Origin: Malacoraja senta | Taxonomy: Eukaryota | NCBI GenBank assembly: GCA_038087875.1 | Contig: CM075993.1 | Coordinates: 8,434,001 to 8,498,000 of the forward strand | Length of the DNA: 64,000 nt | Reading direction: 5' to 3' | In this document: piece by piece, positions 60 to 61,348 of the stretch | Layout of the letters: the number at the start of each line of letters is the position of its first letter | Position numbering within the stretch: position 1 is the stretch's first letter | Made by a program: the position numbers and the translations under genes | Notes under the pieces: model-generated | Databases searched by the model: none | What the model was told of the DNA's origin: nothing | The model's input: the letters and a program-made list of their open reading frames with translations, nothing else

Positions 60-370
60 CGAAACTGGCAGGCAACAGATTACCTCTGGCAGGGAGATTC
101 CCTGATAGGCCGATTGTTGGTAAAGGATGGTGTGGTCTCAAGAGGGGATACATCATTGCAAATTGTGGAACGTTAACCTGCTTAAGTGGGGGAGGTGGGT
201 GGGGAGAAGAGGATGGGGGAGGAGAGTGTATGTTAAAGTTACCTAAAATTAGAGAATTCAACTCTCATACCGCTGGGTTGTAAACTACCCAAGCGAAATA
301 TGAGATGCTGTTCCTCCAATCTGTGGGTGGCCTCACTCTGGCAATGGAGGAGGCCCAGGATAGAAAGGTT
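60..370 (-). mobile_element. Penelope-like element fragment (GIY-YIG C-terminus plus 3' region)
   Basis: 230-370 is the reverse complement of the LEEQHLIFRLGSLQP-coding segment seen at 34940-35070. Confidence 0.7.
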
Positions 371-1140
371 ACTTTGTTTGGTATGGTTTTACCTTAATGG
401 TTTGGCCAGAAAGAAGGAGCGACTTCTCCCGCGGGGTGTTGCTGCTTGTTTGCCGGCTCAAGGAAGTGGTTGGAGCAATGAAATGACTGGTTCTTCCTTC
501 CCTTTCATTGACCATGGAGGGGAATCTTTAAGCTTCAGTGTACATCCAAGCACCGCAATGCTATCCATCAGAAAAAAGAACATCATCCCCTTAAAAGAAA
601 TGATTCAGGTGTGATTCCAGCTTCAACTATTTGGTGTCTACTTTATATTTGTGTGTTTTCATTTACTTTTGTCACTTTTTGTGGGTGGTGAATCATTTCC
701 TGATAGACTGGATTTCTGATCTGCAGGATGTTGGTTTGGTATTCTATTCTATGGCACTCTGCTTCTCCGCATGAATCTGTCTCTCCACCTCTTAGGTGCT
801 CATCCATCTTCTCCAGAGATGTTGCCTGACCAGCTGAGATACCACTGCTCTTTGTGTCTTTTTTGTGAAGCAGCATATTCAGTTCCTTGTGTCTACATTT
901 TGTGAGCCCTGCATTGAACAAAATTGTAAGTCAAGGCTGAAGGGGTGAAGAGGCACATCTTTGGATGTGCGCACCTCAGATGCAACGAGGAGAGTCCATG
1001 CACAGAAGTTTGCCATTTTCAGCTTAGAATTTGTTCCTTGTGTTCTCACTTGCGATTTATCAGCTCTCAGTCCCCTTAATTTTTCCAATCATTTCTCAAA
1101 GTGAGTGCTAATCTCCTTCAGCCCATTCTCTGTATACATA

Positions 1141-1270
1141 AGATAGACACAAAATGCTGGGGTAACTCAGCGGGACAGTCAGCATCTCTGGATAGAAGGA
1201 ATAGGTGACGTATCGGGTCGAGACCCTTCTTCAGACTCTGAAGGAATGGGTGACGTTTCGGGTTGAAACT
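1141..1270 (-). mobile_element. Penelope-derived short repeat (hammerhead-bearing terminal repeat) with partial duplication
   Basis: gatagacacaaaatgctgg...gggtcgagacccttcttcagact, followed by a second aaggaatgggtgacgtttcgggt. Confidence 0.8.
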
Positions 1271-2123
1271 TCTCTACGCACTTGTTGTGCCACTGTGTAC
1301 TTTGTGCTATCCGTGGGCAGGCACTGCATATTCATTTAATTTCTCTGTCATTTTCTTCATCCCCAATATAACTTTCTCTTGTTATCTTTAGATATTGCAC
1401 ATTAGTTGTACTTAATCTTTTCCTTTATACATGCCTAAAGAAGCTTTTACAATCTATTTTTAGATTTCCCGTGACGTTACTATCTATTACTATATTCTTT
1501 CTTCCTCTTTTTTTCATTGTCTTGTTCCTTTGCAAAGTAACCTGAAATGTTCACACACCACAGACTTACTGCTCTTTTTTGGCAGCATTGTAAGCCCTTC
1601 CTTTGATCTACCATTATCTTTAACTTCTATTGCTAGCCATATTTGGACCACTTTTAGTGCTGGGTTTTTGTGTCTGACGGAAATGTATTTGCTGTAGGTT
1701 ATGTCGTAATTCTTTAACATTGGTCATTGTTAACTACTGTCTTACCCTTGAGTTTAGCTTCCATTCTAATTCCATTCAAAATCAGCCCACCCCTCATCAC
1801 ATGGAAGTTGCATTGTTTATATTTAAGATAGATTTTTGGATTAGAGTAAATTACTTAAATTTTCTTTTCCAATATAAAATTCTATAATACCTGATCACTT
1901 TTCACAGAAGGTCCCTTAACTACATTATTAGTAATTTACCTTTTCTTATTGCACAAAATATAATAATGTGTTCCCTGGCTAGTCCCTCAAGAAAACTGAT
2001 TAATTCGTTTGAGATTGAACTAATTAAACTGCCATCTTGTGTTTTCTCCACATTATTACTGAGAGTTTGGTTTTCCCAGTCTACATGAAGATTCTTGCGT
2101 TATCCTTGTCTAATTTTCTGTCC

Positions 2124-2454: not shown

Positions 2455-4506
2455 TCAGTGGACTCTATTCCTTGGAGGATGAGGGGTGATCTTATAGAGG
2501 TGTATAAGGTCATGAGAGGAATAGATCGGGTAGATGCACAGAGTCGCTTGCCTCAGAGTAGGGGAATCGAGGACCAGACGACATAGGTTTAAGGTGAAGG
2601 GGAAAAAATGTAATGGGAATCTGTGGGGTAACTTTTTCACACAAAGGGTGGTGGGTGTATGGAACAAGCTGCCAGACGAGGTAGTTGAGGCAGGGGTTCA
2701 AGTTCAAGTGAGTTTATTGTCATGTGTCCCTGATAGGACAATGAAATTCTTGCTTTGCTTCAGCACAACAGAACATAGAAGGCATTGACTACAAAACAGA
2801 TCAGTGTGTCCATATACCATTCTATAAATATATACACACATGAATAAATAAACTGATAAAGTGCAAATAACAGATAATGGGCTATTAATGTTCATAGTTT
2901 TGTCCGAGCCAAGTTTAATAGCCTGATGGCTGTGGGGAAGTAGCTATTCCTGAACCTGGTTGTTGCAGTCTTCAGGCTCCTGTACCTTCTACCTGAAGGT
3001 AGTAGGGAGATGAGTGTGTGGCCAGGATGGTGTGGGTCCTTGATGATACTGCCAGCCTTTTTGGGGCAGCAAGTGTGTGGCCAGGATGGTGTGGGTCCTT
3101 GATGATACTGCCAGCCTTTTTGGGGCAGCGACTGTGATAGATCCCCTCGATGGAAGGGAGGTCAGAGCCGATGATGGACTGGGTAGTGTTTACTACTTTT
3201 TGTAGTCTTTTCCTCTCCAGGGCGCTCAAGTTGCCGAACCAAGCCACGATGCAACCGGTCAGCATTCTCTCTACTGTGCACCTGTAGAAGTTAGAGAGAG
3301 TCCTCCTTGACAAACCGACTCTCCGTAATCTTCTCAGGAAGTAGAGGCGCTGATGTGCTTCAGAGATGTGCAAGCCCAGGAATTTAAAGCTCTTGACCCT
3401 TTCAACCATCGACCCATTGATATAAACGGAACTGTGGGTCCCCATCCTACTCCTTCCAAAGTCCACAATCAGTTCCTTGGTTTTGCTGGTGTTGAGGGCC
3501 AGGTTATTGTGCTGGCACCATATGGACAGTTGCTCGATCTCTCTTCTGTACTCTGACTCATCCCCATCAGTGATACGTCCCACAACAGCGGTGTCGTCAG
3601 CGAACTTGATGATGGAGTTCGCACTATGACCGGCTACGCAGTCATGAGTATAGAGTGAGTACAGCAGGAGGCTGAGCACGCAGCCTTGAGATGCTCCCAT
3701 GCTGATTGTTATCGAGTCTGACACATTTCCACCAATACGAACAGACTGTGGACTGAGAATGAGGAAGTCGAGGATCCAATTGCAGAGGGATACGCAGATA
3801 CCCAGTTCTGCGAGTTTGGTAACCAGCTTGGAGGGGATGATTGTATTAAATGCCGAGCTGTTGTCAATGAATAACAGCCTGACATATGAGTTTTTGTTGT
3901 CCAAGTGGTCCAGAGCAGAGTGGAGGGCCAGCGAGATCGCATCCACCGTTGATCTGTTGTGGCAGTAAGCGAACTGCAGTGGGTCCAGGTTTTTGTCGAG
4001 GTAGGAGTTGATTTGCACCATGATCAACCTCTCAAAGCACTTCATCACCACAGGCGTTAGTGCCACCGGTCGATAGTCATTGAGGCACGTCACCTTGCTC
4101 TTCTTGGGCACTGGTATGATTGATGCCCCTTTGAAGTAGGTGGGAACCTCAGACCTCAGAAGTGAGAGGTTGAAAATGTCCGTAAAAACTCCAGCCAGTT
4201 GGTCCACACAGGTTCTTAGAAAATGACCAGGTATACCATCAGGTCCAGGCGCTTTTCGAGGGTTCACCCCTCTGAAGGATTGCCTTCAGATTTTCGAGGG
4301 TTCACCCATCTGAAGGATTTTCGAGGGTTCACCCCTCTGAAGGATCCCAACATTTGAGAAACAGTTAGACAGGTACATGGATAGGACATGTTTGGAGGGT
4401 TATGGACCATATGCGGGCAGGTGGGACTAGTGTAGCTGGGACATGTTGGCCGGTGTAGGCAAGTTGGGCCGAAGGGCCTGTTTCCACATTGTATCACTCT
4501 ATGACT
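2455..4506 (+). mobile_element. CR1-clade LINE 3' fragment (2455-2695 and 4344-4506), split by a Rex1 insertion
   Basis: RTRRHRFKVKG...FFTQRVVGVWNKLP motif. The halves rejoin as gaggcaggg/atcccaacattt, compared with the uninterrupted copy at 33190-33222. Ends gggccgaagggcctgtttcc...ctctatgact. Confidence 0.85.
2697..4345 (-). mobile_element. 5'-truncated Rex1/Babar-clade LINE with reverse transcriptase ORF (2972..4267)
   Basis: [31 protein letters not shown] and KFADD motifs. 3' end is AATAAA followed by (CTTGAA)n. Confidence 0.88.
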
Positions 4507-5121: not shown

Positions 5122-6593
5122 TTGCTGAGTATTTATGTACAAGCTGAGTATTTCTGCATTTATTAATTTCCTTTAAACCTTGCTTGAAATCTGCTCTCGC
5201 ATTCAATTGGAAATTTATGATAGACCTCTGTGCACGCTGAGGAACTGAGATGTGTATGTCGATGGAGATGCTGTAACCTCCAACATATCTGCTCTCCTTG
5301 GAACCTCAATTCAGCACCATCTCTTAACTAAAATGGAGGGAGCTTTGGATGTTAAATTCTCCTGTTGAGCTCAGTGAAGAAATGCAGTGGATCCTGGGGA
5401 TCAGTGCTCTTTCAGTGGTCATTCTAGTGAAGGCATCTACATTGGAATAGAGGAGAACCTGAGGACTAATTGTCCATCAGCTTGCCCTTGAAACTCTGTC
5501 ATTCTTCTTGTTTTCTGTTCCTTTCTTATACCATTACTCATTGGCGCGCAACCTCACCCCACTTGCCCTCTACTGCCAAAGCAGCTGGTGTGAGATGACT
5601 GAACTGGGATGCAGAGACAGAATACGACAAGACTCTAATAATCGAATTCACCGCAACCAAATCTAGCTAAGCACTTGACCAGCTGCTTGGATGACCATAG
5701 GAACCGAGTCTCGAGCAATCACACAGGGGGTTGGCCACATAATAGAGGAATTAGCAGCGCATTCATGGTTCCTGGGAGCTAGTTTAATGCCTCAAATCCC
5801 CCAGTAGATTATTTGCACAAACACCACTTTGAAGTTAATTTTCAACATGGCAGCATATCATTTGGATCTATTCAGTCATCAATTCAGCACACAATTCTTG
5901 AATTAGCATCACAATATCAATTTGGTAATATTTTCTACTTCTGTAAATGCTTATTGTGCATTATCATAATTAATATTGTAAATGGGTGGGGAGAGAAGAA
6001 GCAGGTATATCAACACTTTTTGTTTTTTCTTTTCTTTTTTCCGTTTTTGTCTTTTTATTTCTTTAAAGTTTTTACTTACTCACTCTTTGACTCCACTCAT
6101 TTGGTAGTTTAGGGGTTCTATTCTTACACATTCACTTTCTCTTTCACTTTCTTTCTTTCTTGCTCTTCCTCTCTTTTTCTATTTCATCTTTGCTAAAATT
6201 AAAATGGAAGCTGTACAATAAATGTATTGTCATATGCCGAGGTTTATACTATTGTACACTGCTTCTAATAAAAATATAAATTTTAATAATAAAATAAAGA
6301 AAGTGAATGTTTGCCTATTCTGTTAAATCCCTCAGTTTACTATTTGTGGGTAGCACAGGGTACACGAGGATATCAGCACCCTGTGCAACAGTCATAGAGT
6401 CATTCAGCACAGAAACTGACCTTACATCATGTCCATGCCACCCTTATTATTTGGATTCTGGGAGCACTGTATTTTGTATCCTGCTTCTGTGTTGATCTTT
6501 TTTTGCTAACCCTGTTTTGCCTGGGAGGCTGAGTTCATAGTCATAGAGTAAAACAGCACGGGAATAGTTTACTTGGCCGACCTGCCCAAGATG

Positions 6594-6776
6594 TGTAAGA
6601 AAGAACTGCAGATGCTGGTTTAAATCAAAGGTAGACACACAATGCTGGAGTAACTCAACGGGTGAGGCAGCATCTTTGAAGAGACTGAAGAAGGGTCTCG
6701 ACCCGAAACGTCACCCATTCCTTCTCTCCAGAGATGCTGCTTCACCCGCTAAGTTGCTCCAGCAATTTGTGTCCAT
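6594..6776. mobile_element. Fold-back Penelope-derived insertion with 12-bp TSD
   Basis: Inverted arms. TSD ctgcccaagatg at 6582-6593 and 6777-6788. Confidence 0.85.
6685..6712 (+). ncRNA. Minimal hammerhead ribozyme motif
   Basis: CTGAAGA-A-GGGT(CTCG)ACCC-GAAA-CGTC with intact core. Confidence 0.6.
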
Positions 6777-7202
6777 CTGCCCAAGATGCCCGATCTAAGG
6801 TAGTTGCCCATATCCCTCATACCTTTCCTATCCATGTATGTGACCAATACTGTTGTAGTATCTGCCTCTACTACCTCAGCAAGCTTGTATTCCTGGGATG
6901 GCAGGACTGACATATGATGAAAGAATGGATTGACTGGACTTGTATTGACTGGAATTTAGAAGGATGAGAAGTGATCTTATAGAAACATATAAAATTCTTA
7001 AGGGATTGAAAAATGTTCCCCATGTTGGGGGTCCAGAACCAGGGGTCACAGTTTAAGAATAAGGGGTAGGCCATTTAGGACTGAGATGGCGAAAAACTTT
7101 TTCAGCTACAGAGTTGTGAATCTGTGGAATTCTCTGCCATAGTAGGCAGTGGAGGTCAATTCACTGGATGTTTTCACGTGATAGTTAGACATAGTTAGAT
7201 AT

Positions 7203-7298
7203 CAGTCTGAAGAAGGGTCTCGACCCGAAACGTCACCCATTCCTTCTCTCCAGAGATGCTGACTGACCCGCTGAGTTACTCCAGCATTTTGTGTCTAC
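7203..7298 (+). mobile_element. Penelope-derived short unit with 9-bp TSD
   Basis: TSD gttagatat at 7194-7202 and 7299-7307. Confidence 0.85.
7207..7234 (+). ncRNA. Minimal hammerhead ribozyme motif
   Basis: ctgaagaagggtctcgacccgaaacgtc with intact core. Confidence 0.65.
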
Positions 7299-7610
7299 GT
7301 TAGATATAGCTCTTAGGGCTAACGGAATCAAGGGATATGGGGAAAAAGCAGGAACAGGGTGCTGATTCTGGATGATCAGCCATGATCATATTGAATGGCG
7401 GTGCTGGCTCGAAGGGCCGAAAGGCCTACACCTGCATCTATTTCCTATGTTTCTATCCATCAACATTCAATCAGTAAATAAGCATGAATGCCCAGAAACC
7501 GGTTCCCAGAATTAATTGGCACCGTTAATGCACTTCAGATGCGAGAAGGTCAATTATGACTCTTGCATATAGTCAGTCGATTGTCAAACCAAAGCAACCT
7601 TGTGTATTTT

Positions 7611-8452: not shown

Positions 8453-9040
8453 AGATAGACATAAAATGTTGGAGTAGCTCAACGGGACAGGCAACATCTC
8501 TGGATACAAGGAATGGGTGACGTTTTAGGTCGAGACCCTTCTTCAGACTGAGAGTCAGGGGAAAGGAGACACAGATAAGGAAGGGTAAAGTGCAAAAACG
8601 AGACATGAAAAGAGATGAAGATCAAGGAAAATGTAGAATAAATCATTCTAAGCCAGGCGAAGGTGACAACAAAGCAAACGGAAATAAAATGTAACCGGGC
8701 CAGTCAGACTGGTCAGAGAATGAGGAAGTAGGAGGGATGGAGAGAGAGGGAAGTTGGAGTTGAAGTCAAGTTACCGCTGCCCAAGCGAAACATGAGGTGC
8801 TGTTCCTCCAATTTGCGCTGGGCCTCACTCTGACATTGGAAGAGCCCCAGGACAGAAAGGTCAGTGTGGGAATGGGAGGGGGAGTTAAAGTGTTTAGCAA
8901 GCGGCAGGTCAGGTATGTTTAGACGGACTGAACGGAGGTGTTCAGCAAAACTATTGCCGAGCCTGCGCTTGGTCTCGCCGATATATAGGAGTCCACACCT
9001 TGGAACAGCGGATACAGTAGATGAGGTTGGAGGGAGGTGC
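8453..9040 (-). mobile_element. Penelope-like element 3' part: GIY-YIG endonuclease remnant, 3' UTR and hammerhead repeat
   Basis: ORF 8713..9096 contains RCGLLYIGETKRRLGNSFAEHLRSV...HFNSPSH...LEEQHLMFRLG, typical of PLE GIY-YIG domains. It is contiguous with the repeat at 8453-8550. Confidence 0.88.
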
Positions 9041-12493: not shown

Positions 12494-12699
12494 TACACAC
12501 AAAATGCCAGAGTAACTCAGTGGGAAAGGCAGCATCTCTGGAGAAAGGGGCTTTCCCCTGACTCTCAGTCTGAAGAAGGGTCTCAACCTGAAACGTCACC
12601 CATTCCTTCTCTCCAGAGATGCTGCCTGTCCCGCGGAGTTACTCCAGCATTTTGTGTCTCTCTTTGGTTTAAACCAGCATCTGCAGTTCCTTCCTACAC
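12494..12699. mobile_element. Fold-back Penelope-derived insertion with 15-bp TSD
   Basis: TSD atgaaag(g/a)taaaaga at 12479-12493 and 12700-12714. Hammerhead core at 12570-12597. Confidence 0.85.
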
Positions 12700-14033
12700 A
12701 TGAAAGATAAAAGAATGCATTCAGAAAGAATGTAGAAAAATATTTAATGTAGACGTCCTCAACCCCAGTCAAGTCTGTGGCATTTCTTTTTGAAGGGACT
12801 CGGGAGCAGAATTAAGTTCTGAGGGCTTTTGAAGTGCATTGACAGCAACTCAAAGAAAATTACTCTTGACCCTGTGCGTTGCACTCTGACAGAAGACTAC
12901 ACATCATGCCTCTATTATACAAATGTCTGTGTCTGCGAGAGCTATCATGAACAGAATGTAGTTTGACCTTGCATCATATAGAGCAGGGAATTGAGCACGT
13001 TCCCTTGAGAGGAATCTTTGTGAACTCTTAATAAGTGCCCTTTTCTTGATTGCTGATTGTTTTTGGAAAAAAAAGGAAATTAAAATTCCACGTCACATGT
13101 GCTGTGAAAGACTGGTGAAGGGAACATTGGCTCTATATACTGCAAACAGCAGAGCAACAGTTTGGGTCGTTCACGATTCTGGGTCCAAAAAAATAGAAGG
13201 TAAGATTTTCAGAAAAGCACGATATACTCTGAACTGTTTGTTCATCAGACGGGGCATCTGAGATGATGCGACAGTAAAGAACACTTTGTGATCATGAAGG
13301 CGAGGGTGTGGCAGAGTGGATTTGAGGGAGAATAACAGAGGGTAGAATTTTATAACCACATTAGGGAAGCTCCTCAGTCAGTGTGGCAGTGTGTAGAGAT
13401 CATGCTGTTTACTTTGGCCACAATTTGTTGCAGTGGAAATGATGGGAGATCAAGTTAACTCTGATTCCTATTGTCAATACAGATGGTTGTCATAGACTAG
13501 ACTGAGGTTTCCATCCCTTCTCAGAAGTGTGCACTTTGTCACACTGAATGTCACACAAAAAAAAATGTAATTCAAATTTCAATTAATCTAGTATTTGATG
13601 CTATTCGATCTCACTGTTCTGGTCTAGGATTTATTCACTAATGGGGCAGTAGATTTAAAACCAATCAATGCAGACCATGGGGCCACAAAGATTCAACACA
13701 GATAAGATGGAAACGAGCTCTGGGGCTGAACGTCACTGGATGTTAGGTGAATCGAGGCCAAGCAAGGAAAGGGAGTGGCCGTCTTAAGGGATTTTCAGGA
13801 ATGTTCATTTCCAGGCACTGCGATCCCCGCCAGGCTCTGCCTTAAAACGAGACAATCAGAGGGAGGAAACAAGACAGATAGGATGGCACATGGATGCTCA
13901 ATTCTCAGTTGATAGGGCAGTGATTCATTCCCCAGCCGCAGATCAGTCTGAATCATTAAAGCTGGAAGTGCATCTCTTATTGCTCAGCTGGCCTGATTTA
14001 ATCCAATATGCTATCAGCCTCGTCTTCCCCATA

Positions 14034-17054: not shown

Positions 17055-18060
17055 CATAGAATCATACAATGTGGAAACAGGCTCTTCGGTACAACACCGA
17101 CCATCATGTCCCATCTACATCACTCCCACCTGCCTGAGTTTGGCCCATATCCCTCTAAACCTGTCGTATCCATGTACCTGTCCAAATGTTTCTTAAACGT
17201 TGCAACAGTACCTTTCTCAACTACCGCCTCTGGCATACACCCACCACCCTTTGTGTGAAGAAGTTACCCCTCGGGTTCCTATTAAATCTTTCCCCCCCTC
17301 ATCTTAAACCTATGTCCTCTGGTTCTTGATTTCCCCACTCTGGGCAAGAGAATCTGTGCGTCTACCCAATCTATCAGATCACCCTTCATCCCAGGAACAG
17401 AGTCATGGCCTGCTCAAACCCTCCCTATAGCTCAGGCCCTCGTTCAATCCTCGTAAATCTTCTCGGCGGCCTTTCCAGCTTGACAACGTTGTTCCTATAA
17501 CATGGTACCAAGAACTGAACACAATATTCTAAATGCGACCTCACCAACGTCTTGTGTAACTGCAACATGCCCTCCCAACTTCCATGTGTAGGAAAGAACT
17601 GCAAATGCTGGTTTAAATCGAAGGTAGACACAAAATGCTGGAGTAACTCAGCAAGACAGGCAGTATTTCTGAAGAAGGGTCTCGACCCGAAACGGCATCC
17701 ATTCCTTTTCTCCAGAGATGCTGCCTGTCCCGCTGAGTAACTCCAGCATTTTGTGTCTACCTCTCAACTTCTATACTCAATACTCTGACTGATGAAGGCC
17801 AATGTGCCGAAAGCCTTTTTGACGTCCCAATCTACATGTGGTGCCACTTTCAATGAACTATGTACCTGTATTCCTCGATCACTCTGCTCTGCAACACACC
17901 CCATTCGCTGTGTAGGTTCTGCCCACTAATGGCACGAAATGCAACGCCTCACATTTCTCTGTATTAAATTCCGTCAGCTATTCCTCAGCACACCTGCCCA
18001 AACCGACCAAGATCCTGCTGCAAATTTTGACAACGATATTCACTAGCTCCAATACCACCC
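17055..18060 (-). mobile_element. CR1 LINE 3' fragment interrupted by a fold-back PLE unit
   Basis: LQLHKTLVRSHLEYCVQF motif; CR1 tail near 17055-17100. Confidence 0.8.
17585..17759. mobile_element. Fold-back Penelope-derived insertion
   Basis: Imperfect TSD cctcccaacttcca / cctctcaacttcta at 17571-17584 and 17760-17773. Confidence 0.8.
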
Positions 18061-19907: not shown

Positions 19908-20123
19908 AGGTAGACACAAAGCTGGAGTAACTCAGCAGGACAGGCAGCAGCTCTGGAGAGAAGGAATGGGTGACGTTTTGGGTCAAACCCCTTCTTCAGA
20001 CCTTCTCGATACGAAACGTCACCCATTCCCTCTCTCCAGCTATGCTGCCTGTCCTGTTGTGTAACTCCAGTTTTTTGTGTCTATCTTCGGTTTGAACCAG
20101 CATCTGAAGTTCCTTCCTAAACA
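19908..20123. mobile_element. Fold-back Penelope-derived insertion with 14-bp TSD
   Basis: TSD gaggaagaaacagc at 19894-19907 and 20124-20137. Confidence 0.88.
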
Positions 20124-25689: not shown

Positions 25690-26004
25690 CTGATTGCAAT
25701 GAAAAAATGCAGTCCAGCGAATTGGAAGGGGAGGAGTTCCAGTGTTTCTCATTTCTGTCTGTGACAGCTGGCCTTGTGAAACTGCCATGTAGGTCAGGCT
25801 GCCGTTGCAAATACTCTTACGTAAAGGGTTCCTCTTGTGTTTGGCAGTGGGGTATGTGGTTACTGAAAGCCTGCGCTTGCCAGGAGGCCGGCTATTCGTT
25901 CCCAAGCTAATCTTGTGTAATACTTTGATCAATGTATTTTGAGTATGTCTGGAAGCAGTTCAGGTTCCACTGAAGTTGCTGGGAGGTGTTATATTCCACT
26001 GTCT

Positions 26005-26597
26005 TAAAGGCCTCTCTCACGAGTTTGCGGTCATTGGCGGTGTGAAACAGGAAGTATCTACCGCTCGTGGACTGCCAGAGACCGCGGGTTCGGTCAAACG
26101 CACAGTGCCGGGGCCGTGCGGCGTTGGTCCCAACACCGCACGGTGCTCACAAAAAAAAACAACAATGTCGAAAAATCTTTTCCTACCGCACAGCCGCCGC
26201 CAGTGAGGCACGAGTGCGGCACGGGCACCGCCACAGCCGCCGCCGCCAGTGAGGCACGAGTGCGGCTACGGGCACCGCCACAGCCGCCGCCAGTGCGGCC
26301 ACGAAGCGCCCGCGAGTCCAACTTTCACCGCCACAGCCGCCGCCAGTGAGGCACGTGTGCGGCACGGGCACCGCCACAGCCGCCGCGATCACCACTACCG
26401 CCGCTACAGCCCCGCGATCCGAAATGACGTCGTCGCGTTGCGCGATGGCCGCAAGCTCGTGGCACCGGCCGTACGGAGATCACTCGGCCTCCGCGCAGCA
26501 TCCGTGCGGCGCTCTCGCGGTTGCCGTACGGTCCCCTCTTCCGGCGACGCCGCGCTTCACCGCCAATGACCGCAAACCCGTGGGGACAGAGCCTTTA
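26005..26597. mobile_element. CpG-rich MITE (PIF/Harbinger- or Kolobok-like) with ~40-bp TIRs and internal minisatellite
   Basis: Left end taaaggcctctctcacgagtttgcggtcattggcggtg; right end reverse-complemented taaaggctctgtccccacgggtttgcggtcattggcggtg. No transposase. Confidence 0.8.
26187..26385. repeat. GC-rich minisatellite (~43-46 bp unit, 3-4 copies)
   Basis: cagccgccgccagtgaggcacgagtgcggcacgggcaccgcca repeated. Confidence 0.85.
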
Positions 26598-27065
26598 CAG
26601 TTCTGGGAAATAGGTCTATTAAGTGGATCCTGACAGAAGATTCAAGCTGTGCTGTGGCTCATTTCTAAGTATCTCAAATCCTTCACAGGCTTGAGAGGGA
26701 GCTGTGTTTATAGTACTCAGTACAGAAGCATCTTTGTGCTCTGCCCTTTCTTTCCAGTTAACAACACAGCATCACTCCCAACGGATCATTTCAGCATTCC
26801 TTTCCCCCCTCCCTTGAGGAGAATATTACAGTCCAGGTTGACTGAAGGCTGTATGTTGGCATAACTTCAACCTAAGTATCAGTTTACAAGGTTGCGCCTG
26901 TTCCATTATCTGCTTGGGGTGTGATATCCTCACTCGTCACGTGGTTTTATGCAACCGTGGGAAGGAGAGGAGGTGGGGACTGAACATTGGGAGGCGTCAG
27001 CACTGGACAGGTTGTAACTAACTATTTAATTTGGCATAATCTTCTTATCAGGTGTTCTCTCCACG

Positions 27066-27908
<843 letters not shown>

Positions 27909-28154
27909 CACACGTATACATTAATGAAAACTAATGTAAATAGCGTTCAGCTAAACTAAGAGATGATTTTGCAGATCAGGCTCTCGGCCACATTTCCACT
28001 CGGGTTGCCTGAATGACTTTATTGCTAATCATTCAAGTATTGACATTGCAACTGGGCATTGTTGGAAAGTTGTAAGCAGGATATCCTGTCAGTCTAATTA
28101 AGAACAAGCTCAGCTTGCATTGATGTGCCCGGGCTCTCTCTCCACATTTCACAG

Positions 28155-30754: not shown

Positions 30755-30931
30755 GGTAGACAAAAATGCTGGAGAAACTCAGCGGGTGAGGCAGCATCTA
30801 TGGAGCGAAGGAAATAGGCGACGTTTAACGTCGCCTATTTCCTTCGCTCCATCGATGCTGCCTCACCCGCTGAGTTTCTCCAGCATTTTCGTCTACCTTC
30901 AATTGTCCAGAATCTGCAGTTCCCTCTTAAA
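30755..30931. mobile_element. Fold-back Penelope-derived insertion forming a near-perfect hairpin
   Basis: Arms 30755-30825 and 30827-30897. Flanked by atattaattagtggt / atattaattgtggt. Confidence 0.9.
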
Positions 30932-34372: not shown

Positions 34373-34813
34373 GCCATACTGGATCTTCTTTTAAAAATAC
34401 CCCCAGAGAAGATTGCTCCAAGTGATTTTCGCTGTGATTCAGGACACATCCATTGTGTTTTCTTTTTCTAAAATTTGCGCACACATCTGAAACCCAGCTT
34501 GTATATTTTGTCCTTGGCAGCCAAGTTGCACCACAGCCTCTACTCCAGAAGAAGGGTCTCGACCTGAAACGTCACCCACTCCTTCTCTCCAGAGATGCTG
34601 CCTGTCCCGCTGAGTTACTCCAGCACTTTGTGTCTATGAGCCTGTCCTCCACTTCCAGCTGATGCCCTCACTCACTGTGTTGCCCTTTCAATTACCTTCC
34701 TTATCTCCTATTTGTTGAGTTAAGAATCAGACTTCAGACTTTAATGGTACACCGTGGAAACAGGCCCTTTGGGCCCAACGACCAGCAATCACTCTGTACA
34801 CTAACATTATCCT

Positions 34814-35260
34814 TAAGAGACCAAGCGCAGGCTTGGCAATCGCTTCGCCCCACATATATGCACAGACCGCATTAACCAACCCGATCTCCCAGTGGCTCAG
34901 CACTTCAACCCCCCCCCCCCACTCCCATTCCGTATCTGACCTTTCTGTCCTGGGCCTCCTCCATGGCCAGAGTGAGTCCGACTGCAAATTGGAGGAGCAG
35001 CACCTCATATTTCGCTTGTGTAGTTTACACCCCAGCGGTATGAACATTGACTTCTCCAATTTCAGGTAGTCCTTGCTTTCTCCCTCCTTCCCCTCCCCTT
35101 CCCAGCTCTCCACAGCCCACTCTCTGCCTCTTCCTTTCTTCTTCCTGCCCCCCTCCACCCCCACATCAGTCTGAAGAAGGGTCTCGACCCGAAACGTCAC
35201 CTATTCCTTTGCTCCATGGATGCTACCTCACCCACTGAGTTTCTCCAGCATTTTTGTCTG
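34814..35260 (+). mobile_element. 5'-truncated Penelope-like element (GIY-YIG C-terminus, UTR, hammerhead repeat) with 13-bp TSD
   Basis: gagaccaagcgcaggcttggc (ETKRRLG), SHSVSDLSVLGLLHGQSE...KLEEQHLIFRL. TSD ctaacattatcct at 34801-34813 and 35261-35273. Confidence 0.9.
35171..35198 (+). ncRNA. Minimal hammerhead ribozyme motif in the PLE terminal repeat
   Basis: ctgaagaagggtctcgacccgaaacgtc, about 100 nt downstream of the endonuclease stop codon. Confidence 0.7.
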
Positions 35261-36899
35261 CTAACATTATCCTACACACTAGGGACAGTTTTACAAATTT
35301 TCTACTGAAGTCAATTAACAAACAAACTTGTACTTCTTTGAAGTGTGGGAGGAAACCGTGCGGAGCATCCGGAGGAAACCCAAGCGGTCACAGGGAGGAC
35401 GTACAAGCTCTGTACAGACAATACCCGTGGGCAGGATTGAACCAAGGCGCTAGAGACCTGGGTTCAGTCCTGACCTTGGGTGCTGTCCGTGTGGAGTTTG
35501 CACGTTCGCTTTGTGGCCGCGGGGATTTCCTCCAGCTACTCCTCTTTCCCCCCACATCCCAAAGACGTACGGGTAAGGAGACAATGCAGGGGCTGGTTGG
35601 CAATAGGTGGGACATGATGAGGCATGGGATATGATGGGCAGATGGGGATGAGGCTGATTCAGAGGCTGGTAAGTGAGAAGTGGAAACAATCAGAAAACAA
35701 AATTAGGAAGATGAAGTTGGTGGGGGGGCATTCCTTCTCTCCATAGATACCACCTGTCCCGCCAGTTACTCCAGCATTTTGTGCCTATCTACGGGGGGAG
35801 GAGAAGGGTAGATCAGGCTCCTCGTTACCTAGACTCATCATTCTTCCATTTGCCTATAACCTCCCCCCCCCCCCCCCCAAACTGGTTTATCTGCCCATCA
35901 CTCGCATACATCTTTCTGGGTTTCTTCTCTGGTTTACCGTATATACTCTTTATACTCTTCCCCCATCTTGTTGCATCTGCCCATCGGTCCTCCCGTATCT
36001 GATTCTACCTATCACCACCCAGACTCTGTCTCCCTGCCCCGTCTCCACGAGCCCATCATCCTTCCCATACCTGCTTCCACCTACCCACTAGTCTCTGTCT
36101 CGCCTCTTCCCTCTACATGCTCAATTCTGATGCAGGGTCTCAACCGGAAGCGTTGACCATCCCGTGGTCTCCATAGATGCTGTTTTACCTGCTGAGTTCT
36201 TAAAACAGATTAATTCTTTGCTCTAGATTCCAGCATCAGCATTCTCTTGTGTCTCTAAGCCTTGTACAAAATTACATTCAAGTGGTTTAAATTTTGATTT
36301 GTTTCGTTTCTATCCACTCATCCACAGAGTGTTGTCAATCTGCATTTCTGTCATGTTTGAGAGGGATAATTGTTCAGACGCTCAACCTCGAAAAATATGT
36401 CAGTGTTTGTATACTGAGACTGACAAAAGACTCTTGTACAGAATGGAACACCATTCCATGGGTGTGCTGGAAAGATGATTTTTTTCTATTTTCAAAGCAA
36501 TTTTGATTCTAGCCATTGTATAACGATCTTCTGTGGAGATTTGAAAATCATTTTGCAGTATAATAAATGGTGTTTATTGGAAATGTAATGCTTCTCCATT
36601 AATCTGGTGTTAAAAGCTGCATTATTATTCCAATACTGTACTATTTTGAACAGTTAATATTGAACCATTTTGAAATAAAATGTTGTTTTGATGCTGCATC
36701 AGCCAAATACAATAAGATAACGAGGTGATAACAAACAGTTGATCTAGAGATAGACACAAAGTGCTACAGTAACAGCTTGTCAGGCAGCATCTCTGGGGAG
36801 AAAGATGGGTGACATATTGTGTCACGACCCTTCTTCAGACTGGAGATGCTGGTTGTGGAAGCCATGTTGGGGACCTCTCTCCTACTATTTAAACAGTGC

Positions 36900-39400
36900 C
36901 GTGCGATGCATAACATCCTGTGGAAGATAACCCCTTAAACAAAGGTCACATCCTTGACCTGGTCTGCTCCACAAATCAACCGGTACTCGACCTCCATCCA
37001 TGCCTCTTCCCCCTCTCTGATCATAAGCTCATACGGTTCACCATCCCTTCTCCGACACCTCGCCCCCGCTTCCTCCGAGAAATCACCTTCCGTAATCTAA
37101 AATCCATCGACCCTCACCATCTCTCTGACCTGCTCTCCACCACTCTCCCCCTGGACTCAACCCACATCTCACCTGATGATCTCACAAACCATCTCAATTC
37201 CACCTTGTCTACCTCCCTTAACACTCTGGCTCCCCTCAAAACAAGAACCGTAACTTTTAATAGATCTTCACCCTGGTACACACCTGCACTTCGTAAGCTG
37301 AAACAGATTGGTCGCCGACTTGAACGACTCATAAAGAAATCACCTCTCACAGTCCACCATGAAGCTTACAAACTCCACCTCACAGCCTATAAAGATGCCC
37401 TCATTGCTGCTAAATTTGCATACCTCTCCTCCATATTCACTGACCCCTGCCTAAACCACAGAACCCTCTTCTCCACAGTGTGCAATCTCCTCAAGCCTCG
37501 AGCCAACACTCTCCCAACCTCCACTCCGGATCTCTGCAACTCATTCCTCCACTTTTTTGCTGACAAAATCAGCACCATCTATCAATCCCTATCCCCTGTA
37601 CCCGACTCCCCAGCATCTACTCCACCACCTACCAAGGCCCCTCCTTTCAACATCTCCGCTGATCTCCATATCTCTCCCCCTCACTGCTTCCTCTCCCAGT
37701 TTGACCCGGTCACCCCTACTGAAATCTCCAAACTCATCAGCTCTTCCAAACCCACTACCTGCTCCCTTGACCCTCTCCCCACTACCCTGCTGAAGTCCTG
37801 CCTCCCTGCTCTCTGCCCCTACCTCACTAATCTTTTCAACTCCTCATTGTCCCAAGGAATTGTCCCCTCTGCTTTCAAAATTGCTGCTGTCACACCAATC
37901 TTAAAGAAACCTGGTCTTGATCCCTCCTCTCTCATTAACTACCGCCCTATCTCAAACCTCCCCTTTCTTTCAAAAACCCTGGAGCGTATCGTCGCGTCAC
38001 AACTTCATTCCCACCTCCTCGCGTATAACCTATTCGAACCCCTCCAATCTGGCTTTCGCCCCCTCCATAGCACAGAAACTGCTCTCCTCAAAGTCCTCAA
38101 TGACCTCCTTACCTCTGCTGACACTGGCTCCCTCAATATCCTCATCCTCCTCGACCTGAGTGCAGCCTTCGATACCGTCAACCATAACATCCTGCTCACC
38201 AGACTTAGGGACCTTGGCATTGAAGGTTCTACACTCAGCTGGCTCCGTTCCTACCTTTCCAACCGATCCCACTTCATCTCTCTCCATAACCACACCTCTG
38301 CCACAGCCACTGTCACTCAAGGCGTTCCCCAAGGCTCCGTTCTTGGTCCCCTCCTCTTCATCATCTACATCCTCCCCCTTGGTCATATACTCCGTCACTT
38401 CAACCTGGACTTCCACTGCTATGCTGATGACACCCAGATCTATCTCAGCACCAAGTCCCCCCACCACCCCCTCTCTCCCATATCAACTCCTGCCTATCAG
38501 CCATCAAATCTTGGATGCAACTCAACTTCCTTAAATTAAACAGTAGCAAAACAGAATTTCTCCTCATTGGCTCCAAATCAACACTCACTAAAATTAACAA
38601 CCCCACTCTCACTATTGACGGCACCACTGTCTCCCCATTTCCTCAGGCACGCAACCTTGGCGTGATCTTTGACTCAACCCTCTCCCTTGAGCCTTACATC
38701 CGCCATGTTGCCAAAACATCATTTTTTTCACCTCCGCAACATTGCCAAAATCAGATCCTCTCTCACACCCCCCGCTGCTGAAAGACTTCCATGCCTTCAT
38801 CTCCTCCCGACTGGACTACTGTAACTCTCTTCTCTTTGGAATCAATTCCAGCAGCATCAACCGACTCCAACTGGTCCAGAATGCAGCCGCTCGACTCATT
38901 GCCCACACCAAATCCTGGCACCACATCACCCCAGTTCTCAAAAGAACTTCACTGGCTTCCCATTTCCCACCGGATCACCTACAAAACCCTGGTCCTCACC
39001 TACAAAGCCCTCAACAACTTGGCCCCCCCTTAACTCACTGACCTCCTCTCCCCCTACCAACCCTCACGGTCCCTCAGATCCACATCAGCTGGTCTCCTCT
39101 CCACTCCGAAATCAAACCTCTGCACTTTTGGAGGCAGAGCCTTCTCCAGGGCAGCTCCCAGGCTCTGGAATTCCCTCCCACAACTGGTCCGAAATTCTGA
39201 GTCCCTCGCCATCTTTCAGTCCCGCCTCAAGACCCATCTCTTCACCTCTGTATACCCTTAGTCCCATGTTGCCCTCCCCTTTGCATCTCTGTCTTACTGC
39301 TCTATTTTGTTTTGTTTATTCATGACTCTCAATGTAAAGCGACTTTGAGTCCTGAAAAGCGCTATATAAATAAAATCTATTATTATTATTATTATTATTA
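36900..39400 (+). mobile_element. 5'-truncated L2-clade LINE (end of APE endonuclease plus RT; frameshifted after about 38470)
   Basis: GHILDLV..SDH, NYRPISNLPFLSK, QSGFR..HSTETAL, LDLSAAFDTV, GVPQGSVLGP and YADD motifs. 3' tgtaaagcgactttgag...(tat)n. TSD ttaaacagtgc at 36889-36899 and 39398-39408. Confidence 0.92.
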
Positions 39401-49784: not shown

Positions 49785-50492
49785 TCCACTCCCCCCAGAT
49801 GCCACACACAAACTGGAGGAACAACATCTCATATTCCGCTTGGGTAGCTCACAACCTAGAACATTGAATTCTCCACTTTTCAATAACTCCAATAACCTCT
49901 CTCTTCCCTGAGCCTCGCGGACGCGCGCCTATTTCTCCCCTCCTCTTCCACCTACATTCCTTTCTCCATCACAATTTGCAACTTTTTGCAATCCTTTTGT
50001 ATCACACCTTTTCATCTGTAACCCTTGTCCATCATCTGCCTATAATAGATAATAATAATAATAATAATAATAGATAATAGACAATAGATGCAGGAGTAGG
50101 CTATTCGGCCCTTCGAGCCAGCACAACCATTCACTGTGATCATGGCTGATCATTCACAATCAGTACCCCGTTCCTGCCTTCTCCCCATATCTCTTGACTC
50201 CGCTATCTTTAAGAGCTCTATCTAACTCTCTTGAAAGCATCCAGAGAATCGGCCTCCACTGCCTTCTGAGGCAGAGAATAACCACCCCACACCTGTATCA
50301 ACCTATTACCTGCCAGACATTCTCCTGCCCCTCCTCTCTTCCAGCTTCCCCCACCCCCCACAAATAGCCTGACGAAGGGACCAAACCAAAAACATTACCT
50401 ATCCATGCCCTCCAGAGATGCTGCCTGATCCGCTGAGTTAATCCAGCACTTTGTGTCATTTTCTAAACCAGAATCTGCAGTTCCTTGCATCT
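49785..50492 (+). mobile_element. Older Penelope-like 3' fragment, interrupted by a CR1 tail (about 50045-50280, -)
   Basis: aaactggaggaacaacatctcatattccgcttgggtagc (KLEEQHLIFRLGS); decayed hammerhead near 50369; tail ccagaatctgcagttccttg. Confidence 0.75.
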
Positions 50493-50964: not shown

Positions 50965-51187
50965 ATGGACTCGCCTGCCTCCACCCCAGCCCCTCCACCC
51001 CTCCATCTTCTGCCTCCTGTCAACAGTGGTGTTGCATCTCCTGTGGAGCAGATCATGGTCCGCACGCGCTCCATTGCAGTCAATACCTGCGACGTTGGAC
51101 TTGCGACGGAGCCCGAGTGCTTGGGACCCTGTGAGCCAGGGACAAGTGTCAACCTTGAAGGAATTGTTTGGCAGGAAACCGAAGACG
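50965..51187 (+). CDS. ZNF609: Internal coding exon of zinc finger protein 609 (ZNF608/ZNF609/scribbler family)
   Basis: Translates as [74 protein letters not shown](G), the conserved ZNF608/609 block. [14 protein letters not shown] and WQETEDG match ZNF609 as I recall it better than ZNF608 (WHETEEG). Acceptor ttttgtccccacacag|ATG, donor G|gtaagg. 223 nt, phase 0 in, phase 1 out. Confidence 0.92.
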
Positions 51188-53119: not shown

Positions 53120-53216
53120 AGGTAGACAAAAATGCTGGAGGAACTCAGCGGGTGAGGCAGCATCTATGGAGCGAGGGAATAGGTGACGTTTCGGGTCGAG
53201 GCCCTTCTTCAGACTG
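53120..53216 (-). mobile_element. Penelope-derived short unit with 9-bp TSD
   Basis: TSD ttttattga at 53111-53119 and 53217-53225. Hammerhead core intact on the minus strand (53185-53212). Confidence 0.85.
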
Positions 53217-53732
53217 TTTTATTGATGTTGGTTCAGATGAAATAATCGGCTACGACTTTGGAAAGAACATCCTTTGTTGCTTACAGCAAAGTGATGCCGT
53301 GATAGGGTGTTTTAACATTTGCTGAAAAGGGCAAACTGCTGCAGGAACTCAGCGGTTCAAGCAGCATCGGCGGAGACAAAGGAATCGTTGACGTTTCGGG
53401 TCATGGTCCTGGTGCATGGTCTCGACCTGCAATGTTAACAATCCCTTGGCCTCCGCAGATGCTGCTTGACCCGTTGAGTTCCAACAGAGGTTTGTTTTTT
53501 GTTCCAGATCTGCCCTCTCTGATGCTCCGTGCTACAAAGGGTGAGTGGAGCCCGCAGCTGTGGGCCCAGGCAACTGTGGACGAGTGGCTCGTTCATGGCC
53601 TTCCCCGCTTCCTCCACCTCGCATGTCAAACATGTGAAATTTGGAAGGAGCTTTCCCTCTCTTAACACTTCCTGATCATCAGCTCCTCTTGAGTTGTTGG
53701 CTTTGGGAGAATGCTCTCTTTGGGGATGTTGC

Positions 53733-55107
53733 CTAGAGTCAGTTATTAAAGATGGGATAGCAGCACATTTGGAAAGTGGTGAAATCATTGGACAAAGTCA
53801 GCATGGATTTACGAAAGGTAAATCATGTCTGACGAATCTTATAGAATTTTTCGAGGATGTAACTAGTAGCGTGGATAGGGGAGAACCAGTGGATGTGGTG
53901 TATCTGGACTTCCAGAAGGCTTTCGACAAGGTCCCACATAAGAGATTAGTATACAAACTTAAAGCACATGGCATTGGGGGTTCAGTATTGATGTGGATAG
54001 AGAACTGGCTGGCAAACAGGAAGCAAAGAGTAGGAGTAAACGGGTCCTTTTCACAATGGCAGGCAGTGACTAGTGGGGTACTGCAAGGCTCAGTGCTGGG
54101 ACCCCAGCTATTTACAATATATATTAATGATCTGGATGAGGGAATTGCAGGCAATATCTCCAAGTTTGCGGATGACACTAAGCTGGGGGGCAGTGTTAGC
54201 TGTGAGGAGGATGCTAGGAGACTGCAAGGTGACTTGGATAGGCTGGGTGAGTGGGCAAATGTTTGGCAGATGCAGTATAATGTGGATAAATGTGAGGTTA
54301 TCCATTTTGGTGGCAAAAACAGGAAAGCAGACTATTATCTAAATGGTGACCGACTATGAAAAGGGGAGATGCAGCGAGACCTGGGTGTCATGGTGCACCA
54401 GTCATTGAAAGTAGGCATGCAGGTGCAGCAAGCAGTGAAGAAAGCGAATGGTATGTTAGCTTTCATAGCAAAAGGATTTGAGTATAGGAGCAGGGAGGTT
54501 CTACTGCAGTTGTACAGGGTCTTGGTGAGACCACACCTGGAGTATTGCGTACAGTTTTGGTCTCCAAATCTGAGGAAGGACATTATTGCCATAGAGGGAG
54601 TGCAGAGAAGGTTCACCAGACTGATTCCTGGGATGTCAGGACTGTCTTATGAAGAAAGACTGGATAGACTTGGTTTATACTCTCTAGAATTTAGGAGATT
54701 GAGAGGGGATCTTATAGAAACTTACAAAATTCTTAAGGGGTTGGACAGGCTAGATGCAGGAAGATTGCTCCCGATGTTGGGGAAGTCCAGGACAAGGGGT
54801 CACAGCTTAAGGATAAGGGGGAAATCCTTTAAAACCGAGTTGAGAAGAACTTTTTTCACACAGAGAGTGGTGAATCTCTGGAACTCTCTGCCACAGAGGG
54901 TAGTCGAGGCCAGTTCATTGGCTATATTTAAGAGGGAGTTAGATGTGGCCCTTGTGGCTAAAGGGATCAGAGGGTATGGAGAGAAGGCAGGTACGGGATA
55001 CTGAGTTGGATGATCAGCCATGATCATATTGAATGGCGGTGCAGGCTCGAAGGGCCGAATGGCCTACTCCTGCACCTAATTTCTATGTTTCTATGTTTCT
55101 ATGTTTC
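53733..55107 (+). mobile_element. Young 5'-truncated CR1-clade LINE (RT frame with one in-frame stop)
   Basis: SQHGFTKGKSCLTNL, YLDFQKAFDKVPH, QGSVLGP, KFADD and RPHLEYCVQFW motifs. ORFs 53694..54359 and 54369..55004 share a frame. (ttctatgt)n tail. Confidence 0.95.
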
Positions 55108-55552
55108 ATAAGTGATAAGAGGAGATTTAGGCCATTCAGCCAATTAGATCTACTCCGCCATTCAATCATGGCTATTCCATCTCTCCCTTCTAAACCGATT
55201 CTCCTGCCTTCTCTCCATAACCTGTGACACCTGCACTAATCGAGAATCTATCAATCTCTGCCATAAAAATATTCATTGATTTAGCCTCCATAGCCTTCTG
55301 TGGTAATGAATTCCACAGATCAACCACCATTTGATTGATGCAATTCATTGTGGAATTCATTGTCACAAAAGACTATGGAGGCCATGTCAATGGATATTTT
55401 TAAGGCAGAGATAGATAGGTTTGTGATTATTACGGGTGTCGGGTTATTGGGAGAAGGCAGGAGAATGGGGTTTAAAGGGAAAGATAGATCAGCCATGTCT
55501 GAATAACAAACTTGATGGGCCAAATGGCCTAATTCCGCTCCTATGATATGAA
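55108..55552. mobile_element. Head-to-head pair of CR1 3' fragments (imperfect palindrome)
   Basis: 55108-55328 (-) and about 55348-55552 (+) cover the same segment. Confidence 0.75.
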
Positions 55553-56297: not shown

Positions 56298-56516
56298 GGT
56301 AGACAAAAATGCTGGAGAAACTCAGCGGGTGAGGCAGCATCTATGGAGCGAAGGAAATAGGCGACGTTTCGGGTCGAGATCCTTCTTCAGACTAATGTGG
56401 GGGTGGGGAGGGCGGCCTATTCCCTTCGCTCCATAGATGCTGCTGCACCCGCTGAGTTTCTCCAGCATTTTTGTCTACCTTCGATTTTCCAGCATCTGCA
56501 GTTCCTTCTTAAACAT
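56298..56516. mobile_element. Fold-back Penelope-derived insertion with 12-bp TSD
   Basis: TSD gaaagatttaat at 56286-56297 and 56517-56528. Hammerhead core on the minus strand at 56363-56390. Confidence 0.88.
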
Positions 56517-61049: not shown

Positions 61050-61348
61050 CCCCTGCAACCCAGCATTATGAATATTGATTTCCTCCTGATTAATTTGACT
61101 GATTGTATGTCTCCTTATCACCTTCCCCTCAGCTAACAATGAACTATTTTACATTTCCTTGATCAGCATCTGCTTTGATCTGTCATTTTCACACCTTACC
61201 CTTCCATATCTGTAGTCTCCGTCTCCCCTGACTCTCAATCTGAAGAAGGGTCTCGACCCGAATCGCACCCGTTCCTACTCTCCAGAAATGCTGAGTTACT
61301 CCAGCATTTTGTGCCTATCTTGGTGTAAACCGGCATCTGTAGTGCCTT
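61050..61348 (+). mobile_element. Penelope-like 3' fragment (same subfamily as 8453-9040)
   Basis: UTR matches the reverse complement of 8550-8690. Hammerhead at 61240 has a mutated GAAA. Confidence 0.78.

Follow-up and report, generated by a model that had tools for sequence, protein, structure and literature searches.

A Penelope-like element family with a minimal hammerhead motif around a ZNF609 exon of Malacoraja senta

The repeat that recurs through the window, by which is meant the whole 64,000-nucleotide stretch of Malacoraja senta DNA analyzed here, is in all likelihood the pLTR, of about 92 nt, of a GIY-YIG Penelope-like element (PLE) carrying a minimal hammerhead, and its short copies are likely truncated reverse-transcription insertions made from uncut RNA. 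On its sequence, the motif belongs to the min-HHR class of PLE pLTRs as set out in PMC4209133, and since that class was published in 2014 the motif itself is not new. The features on which the analysis is based are collected in Table 1.

Table 1. Coordinates of the ZNF609 exon, the insertion at 34814-35260 and other copies of the family in the window.
Feature	Position	Strand	Remarks
PLE insertion, 5'-truncated, within another repeat	34814..35260	+	flanked by a 13-bp duplication, CTAACATTATCCT
GIY-YIG endonuclease C-terminal remnant	34814..35069	+	frameshift at C run ~34909-34921; natural stop 35067-35069
3' UTR, pyrimidine-rich	35070..35167	+	subfamilies differ here
TCAGTCT, putative transcript start	35166..35172	+	relatives' short-copy 5' junctions at 35168 (A) and 35169 (G)
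Minimal type I hammerhead	35169..35200	+	helix I GU/AC; helix II GGGU/ACCC
Remainder of pLTR unit, subfamily B	35199..35260	+	first 12 nt are the predicted off-hairpin strand
Solo unit, subfamily A, motif strictly intact	7203..7298	+	GTTAGATAT on both sides (by eye)
Head-to-head pair	6592..6776	.	tail on minus arm; 14-bp duplication; core intact at 6685
Head-to-head pair	12494..12700	.	tail on plus arm; 15-bp duplication; G.U at 10.1-11.1
Head-to-head pair, youngest copy	56299..56515	.	1% from subfamily majority; 15-bp duplication; tail on plus arm
Solo unit, subfamily B	53122..53216	-	3-bp helix II
Longest PLE remnant	8455..9040	-	GIY-YIG C-terminal part, 3' UTR, pLTR; hammerhead dead
Old PLE remnant	49798..50486	+	split by later repeats; hammerhead dead; has tail
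PLE remnant	61068..61348	+	ORF end, 3' UTR, damaged pLTR, tail
GIY-YIG C-terminal remnant and 3' UTR start	184..376	-	hammerhead gone
Partial head-to-tail tandem	1143..1275	-	one G between upstream piece and second copy's AGT
ZNF609 coding exon	50965..51187	+	AG/GT ends; residues 261-335 of a 1435-aa homolog

Anatomy of the insertions and identity of the element

A profile search of the window with the unit of about 95 nt returned 58 arms, which make up 6.8% of the window, and the same search of the reversed window gave 0 matches. The core region is spanned by 34 of these arms, in keeping with the original prediction that the motif occurs more than 20 times in intact or decayed form. The arms resolve into 43 insertions, of which 15 are head-to-head pairs and 28 stand alone; tail-to-tail neighbours occur once. 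Duplications of at least 9 bp were detected at 16 of the 43 insertions and at 10 of the 15 pairs (null 1.4%), with lengths ranging from 9 to 17 bp, and each head-to-head pair is considered one event because the duplications flank pairs; at three long old remnants a target duplication was sought and none found. A 39-nt tail lies on exactly one arm in 10 of the 15 pairs and on both arms in 0 of 15, the 5 pairs without a visible tail being older ones. No whole-unit tandem occurs in the window, where neighbours in the same orientation comprise 0 plus-plus and 2 partial minus-minus cases.

Inverted pairs, a one-sided tail and target duplications are marks of PLEs (PMC3846280 and PMC8557442), in which the duplications of EN+ elements measure 9-10 bp. 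Like EN+ PLEs of the Neptune/Nematis type (Craig et al., 2021, PMC8557442; Arkhipova et al., 2013, PMC3846280), the present family shows a C-terminal GIY-YIG, 5' truncation and an inverted head-to-head copy with a tail at one end (30-40 bp in those elements), whereas its insertions are unusually short and have a fixed 5' end.

A coding remnant is linked to the unit in five places (34808-35087, 8776-9000, 49798-49884, 242-376 and 61068). The predicted joining of GIY-YIG remnants to the motif was borne out at 34808-35087 (+), 8776-9000 (-) and 49798-49884 (+), all of which, like a further remnant at 242-376 (-), match PLE-type proteins from skates, rays and sharks. The attribution to a PLE of a cartilaginous fish also held, the best matches of the remnant being skate and ray proteins at 73-75% identity. 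The ORF end of the 34814-35260 insertion contains one frameshift, and the copy at 49785-50492 is interrupted by a microsatellite and another repeat. Pfam did not call GIY-YIG on the window remnants (E 0.22 in one run, none in the other), and on the homologs the domain was matched at E 0.001-0.002, below the cut-off. In the homologs P0007 and P0010 the C-terminal half of a reverse transcriptase (RT) is joined to the same endonuclease, with Pfam matches to both RT and GIY-YIG, and a CX4CxxC linker was read in P0004 and P0010; a CX2-5CxxC linker between RT and EN marks Neptune/Nematis (PMC8557442). The RT half, linker and endonuclease of the homologs therefore point to Neptune or Nematis as a candidate clade, an assignment drawn from the homologs because the window copies end short of the linker and RT. 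No full-length element with RT was found in the window, and a PDB search returned no relative of P0010. Near its C terminus P0007, from zebra shark, continues across the PLE 3' UTR into a peptide with codons that would suit a CUGAUGA hammerhead variant.

In the Poseidon element of Anolis, PAc (Frangieh et al., 2024, PMC11167929), reverse transcription starts internally at two sites, which define the tail, the template is uncut RNA, both strands are extended and the ribozyme is protein-assisted; for inverted pairs, self-priming on an antisense template has also been proposed (PMC3846280). The window family resembles PAc in having a pair of 3' ends that correspond to the two internal starts, in copies that span the cut site (34 of 58 arms) and in the lack of RNA-seq ends there, and differs in that the PAc ORF starts inside the hammerhead, no ORF start having been located in the window family, and that the available part of that report describes no fixed 5' end before the core. 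By analogy with other PLEs, the endonuclease would nick the target, reverse transcription would begin inside the RNA, at either the pLTR end or the tail end, and priming on both strands would yield a head-to-head pair.

The short units had been proposed to resemble a retrozyme- or SINE-like expansion. One reading along these lines is a separate non-autonomous family (SINE or non-LTR retrozyme) with its own small or circular RNA produced via tandem hammerheads. The units are like animal non-LTR retrozymes (Li et al., 2026, 10.64898/2026.07.22.740005) in being non-coding, PLE-derived, type I and dispersed as monomers; retrozymes are known from one chondrichthyan (same source), the window copies are mainly short units whose 5' end is constant (in 15 of 20 young arms) and whose 3' end is likewise fixed, relatives have a few whole-unit tandems (10, 4 and 1 contigs, joint 35257 to 35167), and a solo unit could act as template. 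However, retrozymes are defined by two or more consecutive units in tandem that each bear a complete hammerhead, and full head-to-tail arrays are absent from the window and rare in relatives; excision by the hammerhead predicts a start after GUC, whereas the copies start before the core; and the short units, which open with the hammerhead and are wholly PLE-derived, bear PLE insertion marks, grade into ORF-bearing copies and share subfamilies A and B with them. Rfam at E<=1 gave no tRNA match at the units. A separate family of this kind is thus held to be improbable, and the short units are better described as truncated PLE insertions.

The hammerhead motif, its predicted fold and its decay

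At the 34814-35260 insertion the hammerhead core occupies 35171-35177 and 35191-35194, with the palindrome ACGU at 35194-35197 (+), and the cut is predicted at 35198/35199. The motif was confirmed as a minimal type I hammerhead of the form CUGAAGA-A-4 bp helix II-GAAA-CG-UC, with a helix I of 2 bp (GU/AC) as had been described and a loop-less ACGU helix III which would be able to pair between two copies only. The hammerhead pattern at up to 3 mismatches has 19 matches in the window (0.01 expected), and a relaxed minimal-hammerhead descriptor finds 7 sites, at 6685, 7207, 12570 and 35171 (+) and at 53212, 56390 and 60601 (-), against a null mean of 0.04 and a maximum of 1 in 100 resamples. All six cores that had been called intact are among these 7, but strictly whole motifs are confined to 7207 and 35171. 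Among 31 scored arms, all core letters are kept in 10; G10.1-C11.1, at least 3 helix II pairs and the palindrome are kept as well in 5; and 4 helix II pairs together with 2 helix I pairs in the 2 just named. The departures elsewhere consist of G.U at 10.1-11.1 at 12570, one helix II mismatch each at 53212 and 56390 and loss of pair 2.1-1.1 at 6685, and the motifs that adjoin coding remnants at 8546, where C11.1 and G12 are altered, and at 50369 are both defunct. Between subfamilies A and B, 1 of 33 positions in the hammerhead and 8 of 62 farther downstream are different (p 0.16), and both subfamilies keep all catalytic letters, as do unrelated families. A search of Rfam returned no hammerhead family among 20 matches at E<=1. 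Pattern scans gave 0 matches in viral contigs, 0 in prokaryote genomes and 4 in metagenomes; none of these 4 comes from the window family, and one (L004) is likely due to chance. Two of the metagenome loci, L001:401-432 and L002:401-432 (-), are unrelated minimal hammerheads lying head-to-head about 100 nt apart, likely from a PLE of another animal.

Like the min-HHR (Cervera and De la Pena, 2014, PMC4209133), the motif is of type I with a loop-less helix III, a palindromic 15.2-16.2, an extra base between 9 and 10.1 and G10.1-C11.1, and its copies are mostly solo, with opposite-strand pairs and a predicted dependence on dimers. It differs from the Schistosoma min-HHR, where helix II has 7-8 and helix I 4-5 bp, in having 4 and 2 bp, respectively, although the helix I of D. 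virilis likewise has 2 bp (PMC4209133). In that study of mostly solo copies and opposite-strand pairs the monomer was uncleaved and dimers were weakly cleaved, and the function of PLE hammerheads is still regarded as open (PMC8557442).

Folding predictions suggest that the motif is mostly held inactive. The ACGU duplex is predicted at only -1.7 kcal/mol, and the best predicted dimer is an inactive duplex of -21.1 kcal/mol, compared with -12.7 kcal/mol for the state with helix II and helix III. Helix II has a predicted probability of 0.95-0.98 while the chain ends no more than 3 nt from the cut site; with a further 5-12 nt, which pair with the 5' core strand, the value drops to 0.0 in subfamily A and to 0.1-0.5 in subfamily B. 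The 12 nt past the cut site complement the 5' core strand and helix II (35168-35210 and 7204-7246, +), and this off-hairpin, kept in both subfamilies with C to U changes that retain G.U pairs, may be a built-in off switch that dominates the predicted fold. When the region 6670-7310 was folded, pairing between 6685 and 7207 via ACGU had a probability of 0.0. The activity of the intronic copies is accordingly predicted to be low, and they are likely inert.

Covariation, which had been proposed as a check, is slight: 1 of 6 pairs changes on both sides, but none is compensatory among the window copies, the both-side change coming from three loci of other families. The alignment consisted of 13 rows, namely 10 near-intact window copies and 3 of the 4 metagenome loci (L004 was excluded as likely chance); 89.7% of its cells pair and 8 of 500 shuffles reach the score, which makes for a weak test. 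At pair 4 of helix II the window copies have U-A, a relative's variant has U.G together with a UUCG loop, and the three metagenome loci, which belong to other families, have C-G, A-U and G.U; pair 1 of helix I is A-U instead of U-A in one arm of L001/L002.

Changes at G12 were counted in 6 of 21 young arms and at C11.1 in 7 of 22, and the catalytic G12, the general base, lies in a CpG and decays at the CpG rate. Non-CpG core sites are changed in 4 of 169 cases (2.4%) in young copies versus 94 of 1447 (6.5%) downstream (p 0.04); this lower core change is unlike strict neutral decay and can be caused by detection bias or unresolved subfamilies. The CpG formed by C11.1 and G12 was lost in 13 of 43 cases versus 19 of 152 for other CpGs (p 0.009, post hoc), and selection against active ribozymes was ruled out as the cause because the loss is alike on both strands. 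It may be that the hammerhead cuts after GUC only when two copies pair via ACGU, probably with the help of protein, and that the ribozyme is selected in active master elements and decays neutrally once inserted.

Another reading is that the motif persists because it serves as an internal promoter or protein-binding signal, its cutting function having been lost. Its position would fit an internal promoter, which D. virilis Penelope has (PMC2377424), the off-hairpin prevails in the predicted fold, the low-power RNA run shows no pile of read ends at the cut site, and ribozyme mutants of the Anolis element left in vitro insertion unaffected (PMC11167929). Against this, both subfamilies and unrelated families retain the catalytic letters, helix II pairing survives base changes, and weak cutting by related motifs has been seen in dimers or with protein (PMC4209133, PMC11167929), so that loss of cutting appears rather improbable, though somewhat less so than a separate short-unit family.

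Copies in relatives and the fixed 5' end

Contigs and reads of relatives were matched to 34800-35275 at 82% likeness, and all genome-wide counts given here are those of relatives. There were 136,598 and 160,690 matching contigs in two runs and 13,462 matching reads among 7.3 million poly(A) reads of a relative, 96% of which continue into unlike sequence; the family is thus genome-wide in relatives and carried in host transcripts on both strands. Read starts and ends pile nowhere, the cut site included, and depth is continuous there, in a run that has little power because it is fragmented poly(A) RNA of a relative and represents mostly embedded copies. A roughly 30-fold step in RNA depth at 35168 was discarded as a copy count, and depth steps were not used because upstream sequence varies by subfamily and contig depth does not equal copy number. 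In addition to the rare whole-unit tandems, a joint from 35205 to 35168 marks 38-nt head-to-tail hammerhead duplications with one G between the copies (14 and 3 contigs); these rare natural close dimers would suit a cleavage test. A loose end at 35204 in run X21 (1212 reads) corresponds to a third abundant subfamily, with a UUCG loop, a U.G in helix II and a GUU triplet.

In 15 of 20 young core-reaching arms of the window, PLE sequence ends within about 6 nt upstream of the core, a count for which 35171 was scored as long and 7207 as short by eye. Among the rows listed for relatives, junctions at 35168/35169 were carried by 1425/1401, 1165/1111 and 161/153 contigs and by 961 reads, with unrelated, A/T-rich flanks that agree at 0.31-0.33. 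The letter adjacent to the junction is most commonly G in 6 of the 7 junction rows listed (6 of 6 contig rows), the exception being the RNA run, whose loose consensus at 35168 ends in A; such an A could reflect host exons spliced there. The junction rows are the top six loose-end rows of each run, some ends being uncounted, and G is the plurality letter. An additional single G is present at tandem joints that lead back to 35168, and in the window a G stands at the junction in 5 or 6 of 15 short arms (1234, 6685, 19999, 24257 and 47696, with 60601 ambiguous). Piles comparable in size at 35165-35166 stem from longer copies that belong to other subfamilies, and five tail-bearing arms extend upstream of the 5' site. 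The consensus of the initiator element is YYANWYY, and TCAGTCT fits it; DPE/MTE-like matches near this start were set aside as too short to count.

The chances are roughly even that the short copies run off at the capped 5' end of the RNA, 3 nt before the core, and that the G derives from the cap. In full-length LINE-1 and SVA copies one extra G at the 5' junction has been read as the reverse-transcribed cap (PMC4859970), a likeness qualified by the different element class, by G being here the plurality letter only and by its marking, in this case, a 92-nt product. It is more tentatively suggested, with the balance somewhat against it, that, with a capped start 3 nt upstream of the core, cleavage would remove a capped leader of 31 nt, the element decapping itself. 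Still a little less likely is that the fixed 5' end reflects either stalling of the RT at a pyrimidine- or C-rich tract or splicing to a CAG/T acceptor-like site. A long pyrimidine tract ending in CAG does lie upstream in both subfamilies, a D. virilis intron ends at helix I (PMC4209133), the RNA run has A and not G at its 35168 junction, 5 tail-bearing arms extend past the site on its upstream side, and 7-mers resembling an initiator turn up often, at 11 per kb. Yet the junctions concentrate at two adjacent purines, G is commonest in all six contig rows listed, and the extra G is predicted by neither process. As a separate observation, the pyrimidine tract and CAG before the core at 35070-35170 and 8547-8610 (-) resemble a sense-strand splice acceptor.

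If the decapping reading is true, the copies of about 92 nt would be complete run-off products extending from an internal RT start to the cap, helix I would have at most 3 bp in the 5' copy, cleavage would be gated by the off-hairpin together with two-copy pairing, and there would be about 10^5 descriptor-intact hammerheads per genome, a figure extrapolated from the 7 in 64 kb. Such a number would exceed those of the other vertebrates reported in PMC4209133, where about 4,000 are given for the coelacanth and 9,000 for Xenopus per genome; the comparison is between one window and whole genomes, with different descriptors. Neither shark nor skate is named in the searched portions of that paper, and literature searches, with subscription journals mostly outside their scope, retrieved no shark or skate PLE hammerhead and no transcript start 3 nt before a PLE hammerhead.

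The ZNF609 setting and significance of the family

Over 74 aa the exon in the window shows 100% identity with a ZNF609-like protein of a sawshark, and tblastn with three shark or ray ZNF609 proteins matched nothing else there; both flanks are inferred to be introns because these proteins match no other part of the window. The gene had been named correctly, but the copies do not lie in a single ZNF609 intron: there are two introns, with 46 arms upstream and 12 downstream of the exon. A special link to ZNF609 was not upheld, given that the arms show no strand bias (32 plus and 26 minus, p 0.51; solo units 17 plus and 11 minus, p 0.34) and that the family is genome-wide in relatives. It is accordingly very improbable, the least likely of the readings weighed here, that the host kept the copies to regulate ZNF609 by cleavage of the intron or by pairing that favours back-splicing. 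What speaks for such a role is that both strictly intact copies are sense to ZNF609, that inverted pairs are predicted to fold into hairpins of -89 to -136 kcal/mol and that mammals have a circular ZNF609 RNA (PMC5387670); apart from the missing strand bias and the genome-wide spread, the catalytic G12 is often lost and conservation of the locus between orthologs is unsupported, the best indexed run sharing 0.38 of the locus words, less than half. With decay after insertion presumably neutral, the copies in ZNF609 are likely passengers that would rarely cut the pre-mRNA, and the location adds little.

Several other features of the region were recorded. The inverted pairs at 6592-6776, 12494-12700, 17585-17760, 19910-20123, 30756-30931 and 56299-56515 are predicted to form hairpins of 176-217 nt, which in ZNF609 pre-mRNA would be possible substrates for editing or small RNAs and which mimic MITEs. 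Three remnants of LINE RTs (Pfam RVT_1), each with long open frames, lie at 53676-55004 (+), where a lone stop between 54356 and 54360 interrupts the frame, at 36914-39325 (+) and at 2972-4285 (-). GC-rich short repeats at 26000-26700 are followed, within the intron, by a GA/CT microsatellite of about 900 bp (26984-27960), and a long imperfect inverted repeat at 55188-55476, with miRNA-like Rfam hairpins below threshold, overlaps a different repeat family.

Together, the analysis adds a lineage and a density figure, 7 descriptor sites in 64 kb, to a class of PLE hammerheads known since 2014. The transcript start, two RT starts and the cut site would all fall within about 130 nt and be recorded in very many genomic copies, and a family of this kind would be a good system in which to test whether the ribozyme decaps its RNA, circularizes it or does nothing.
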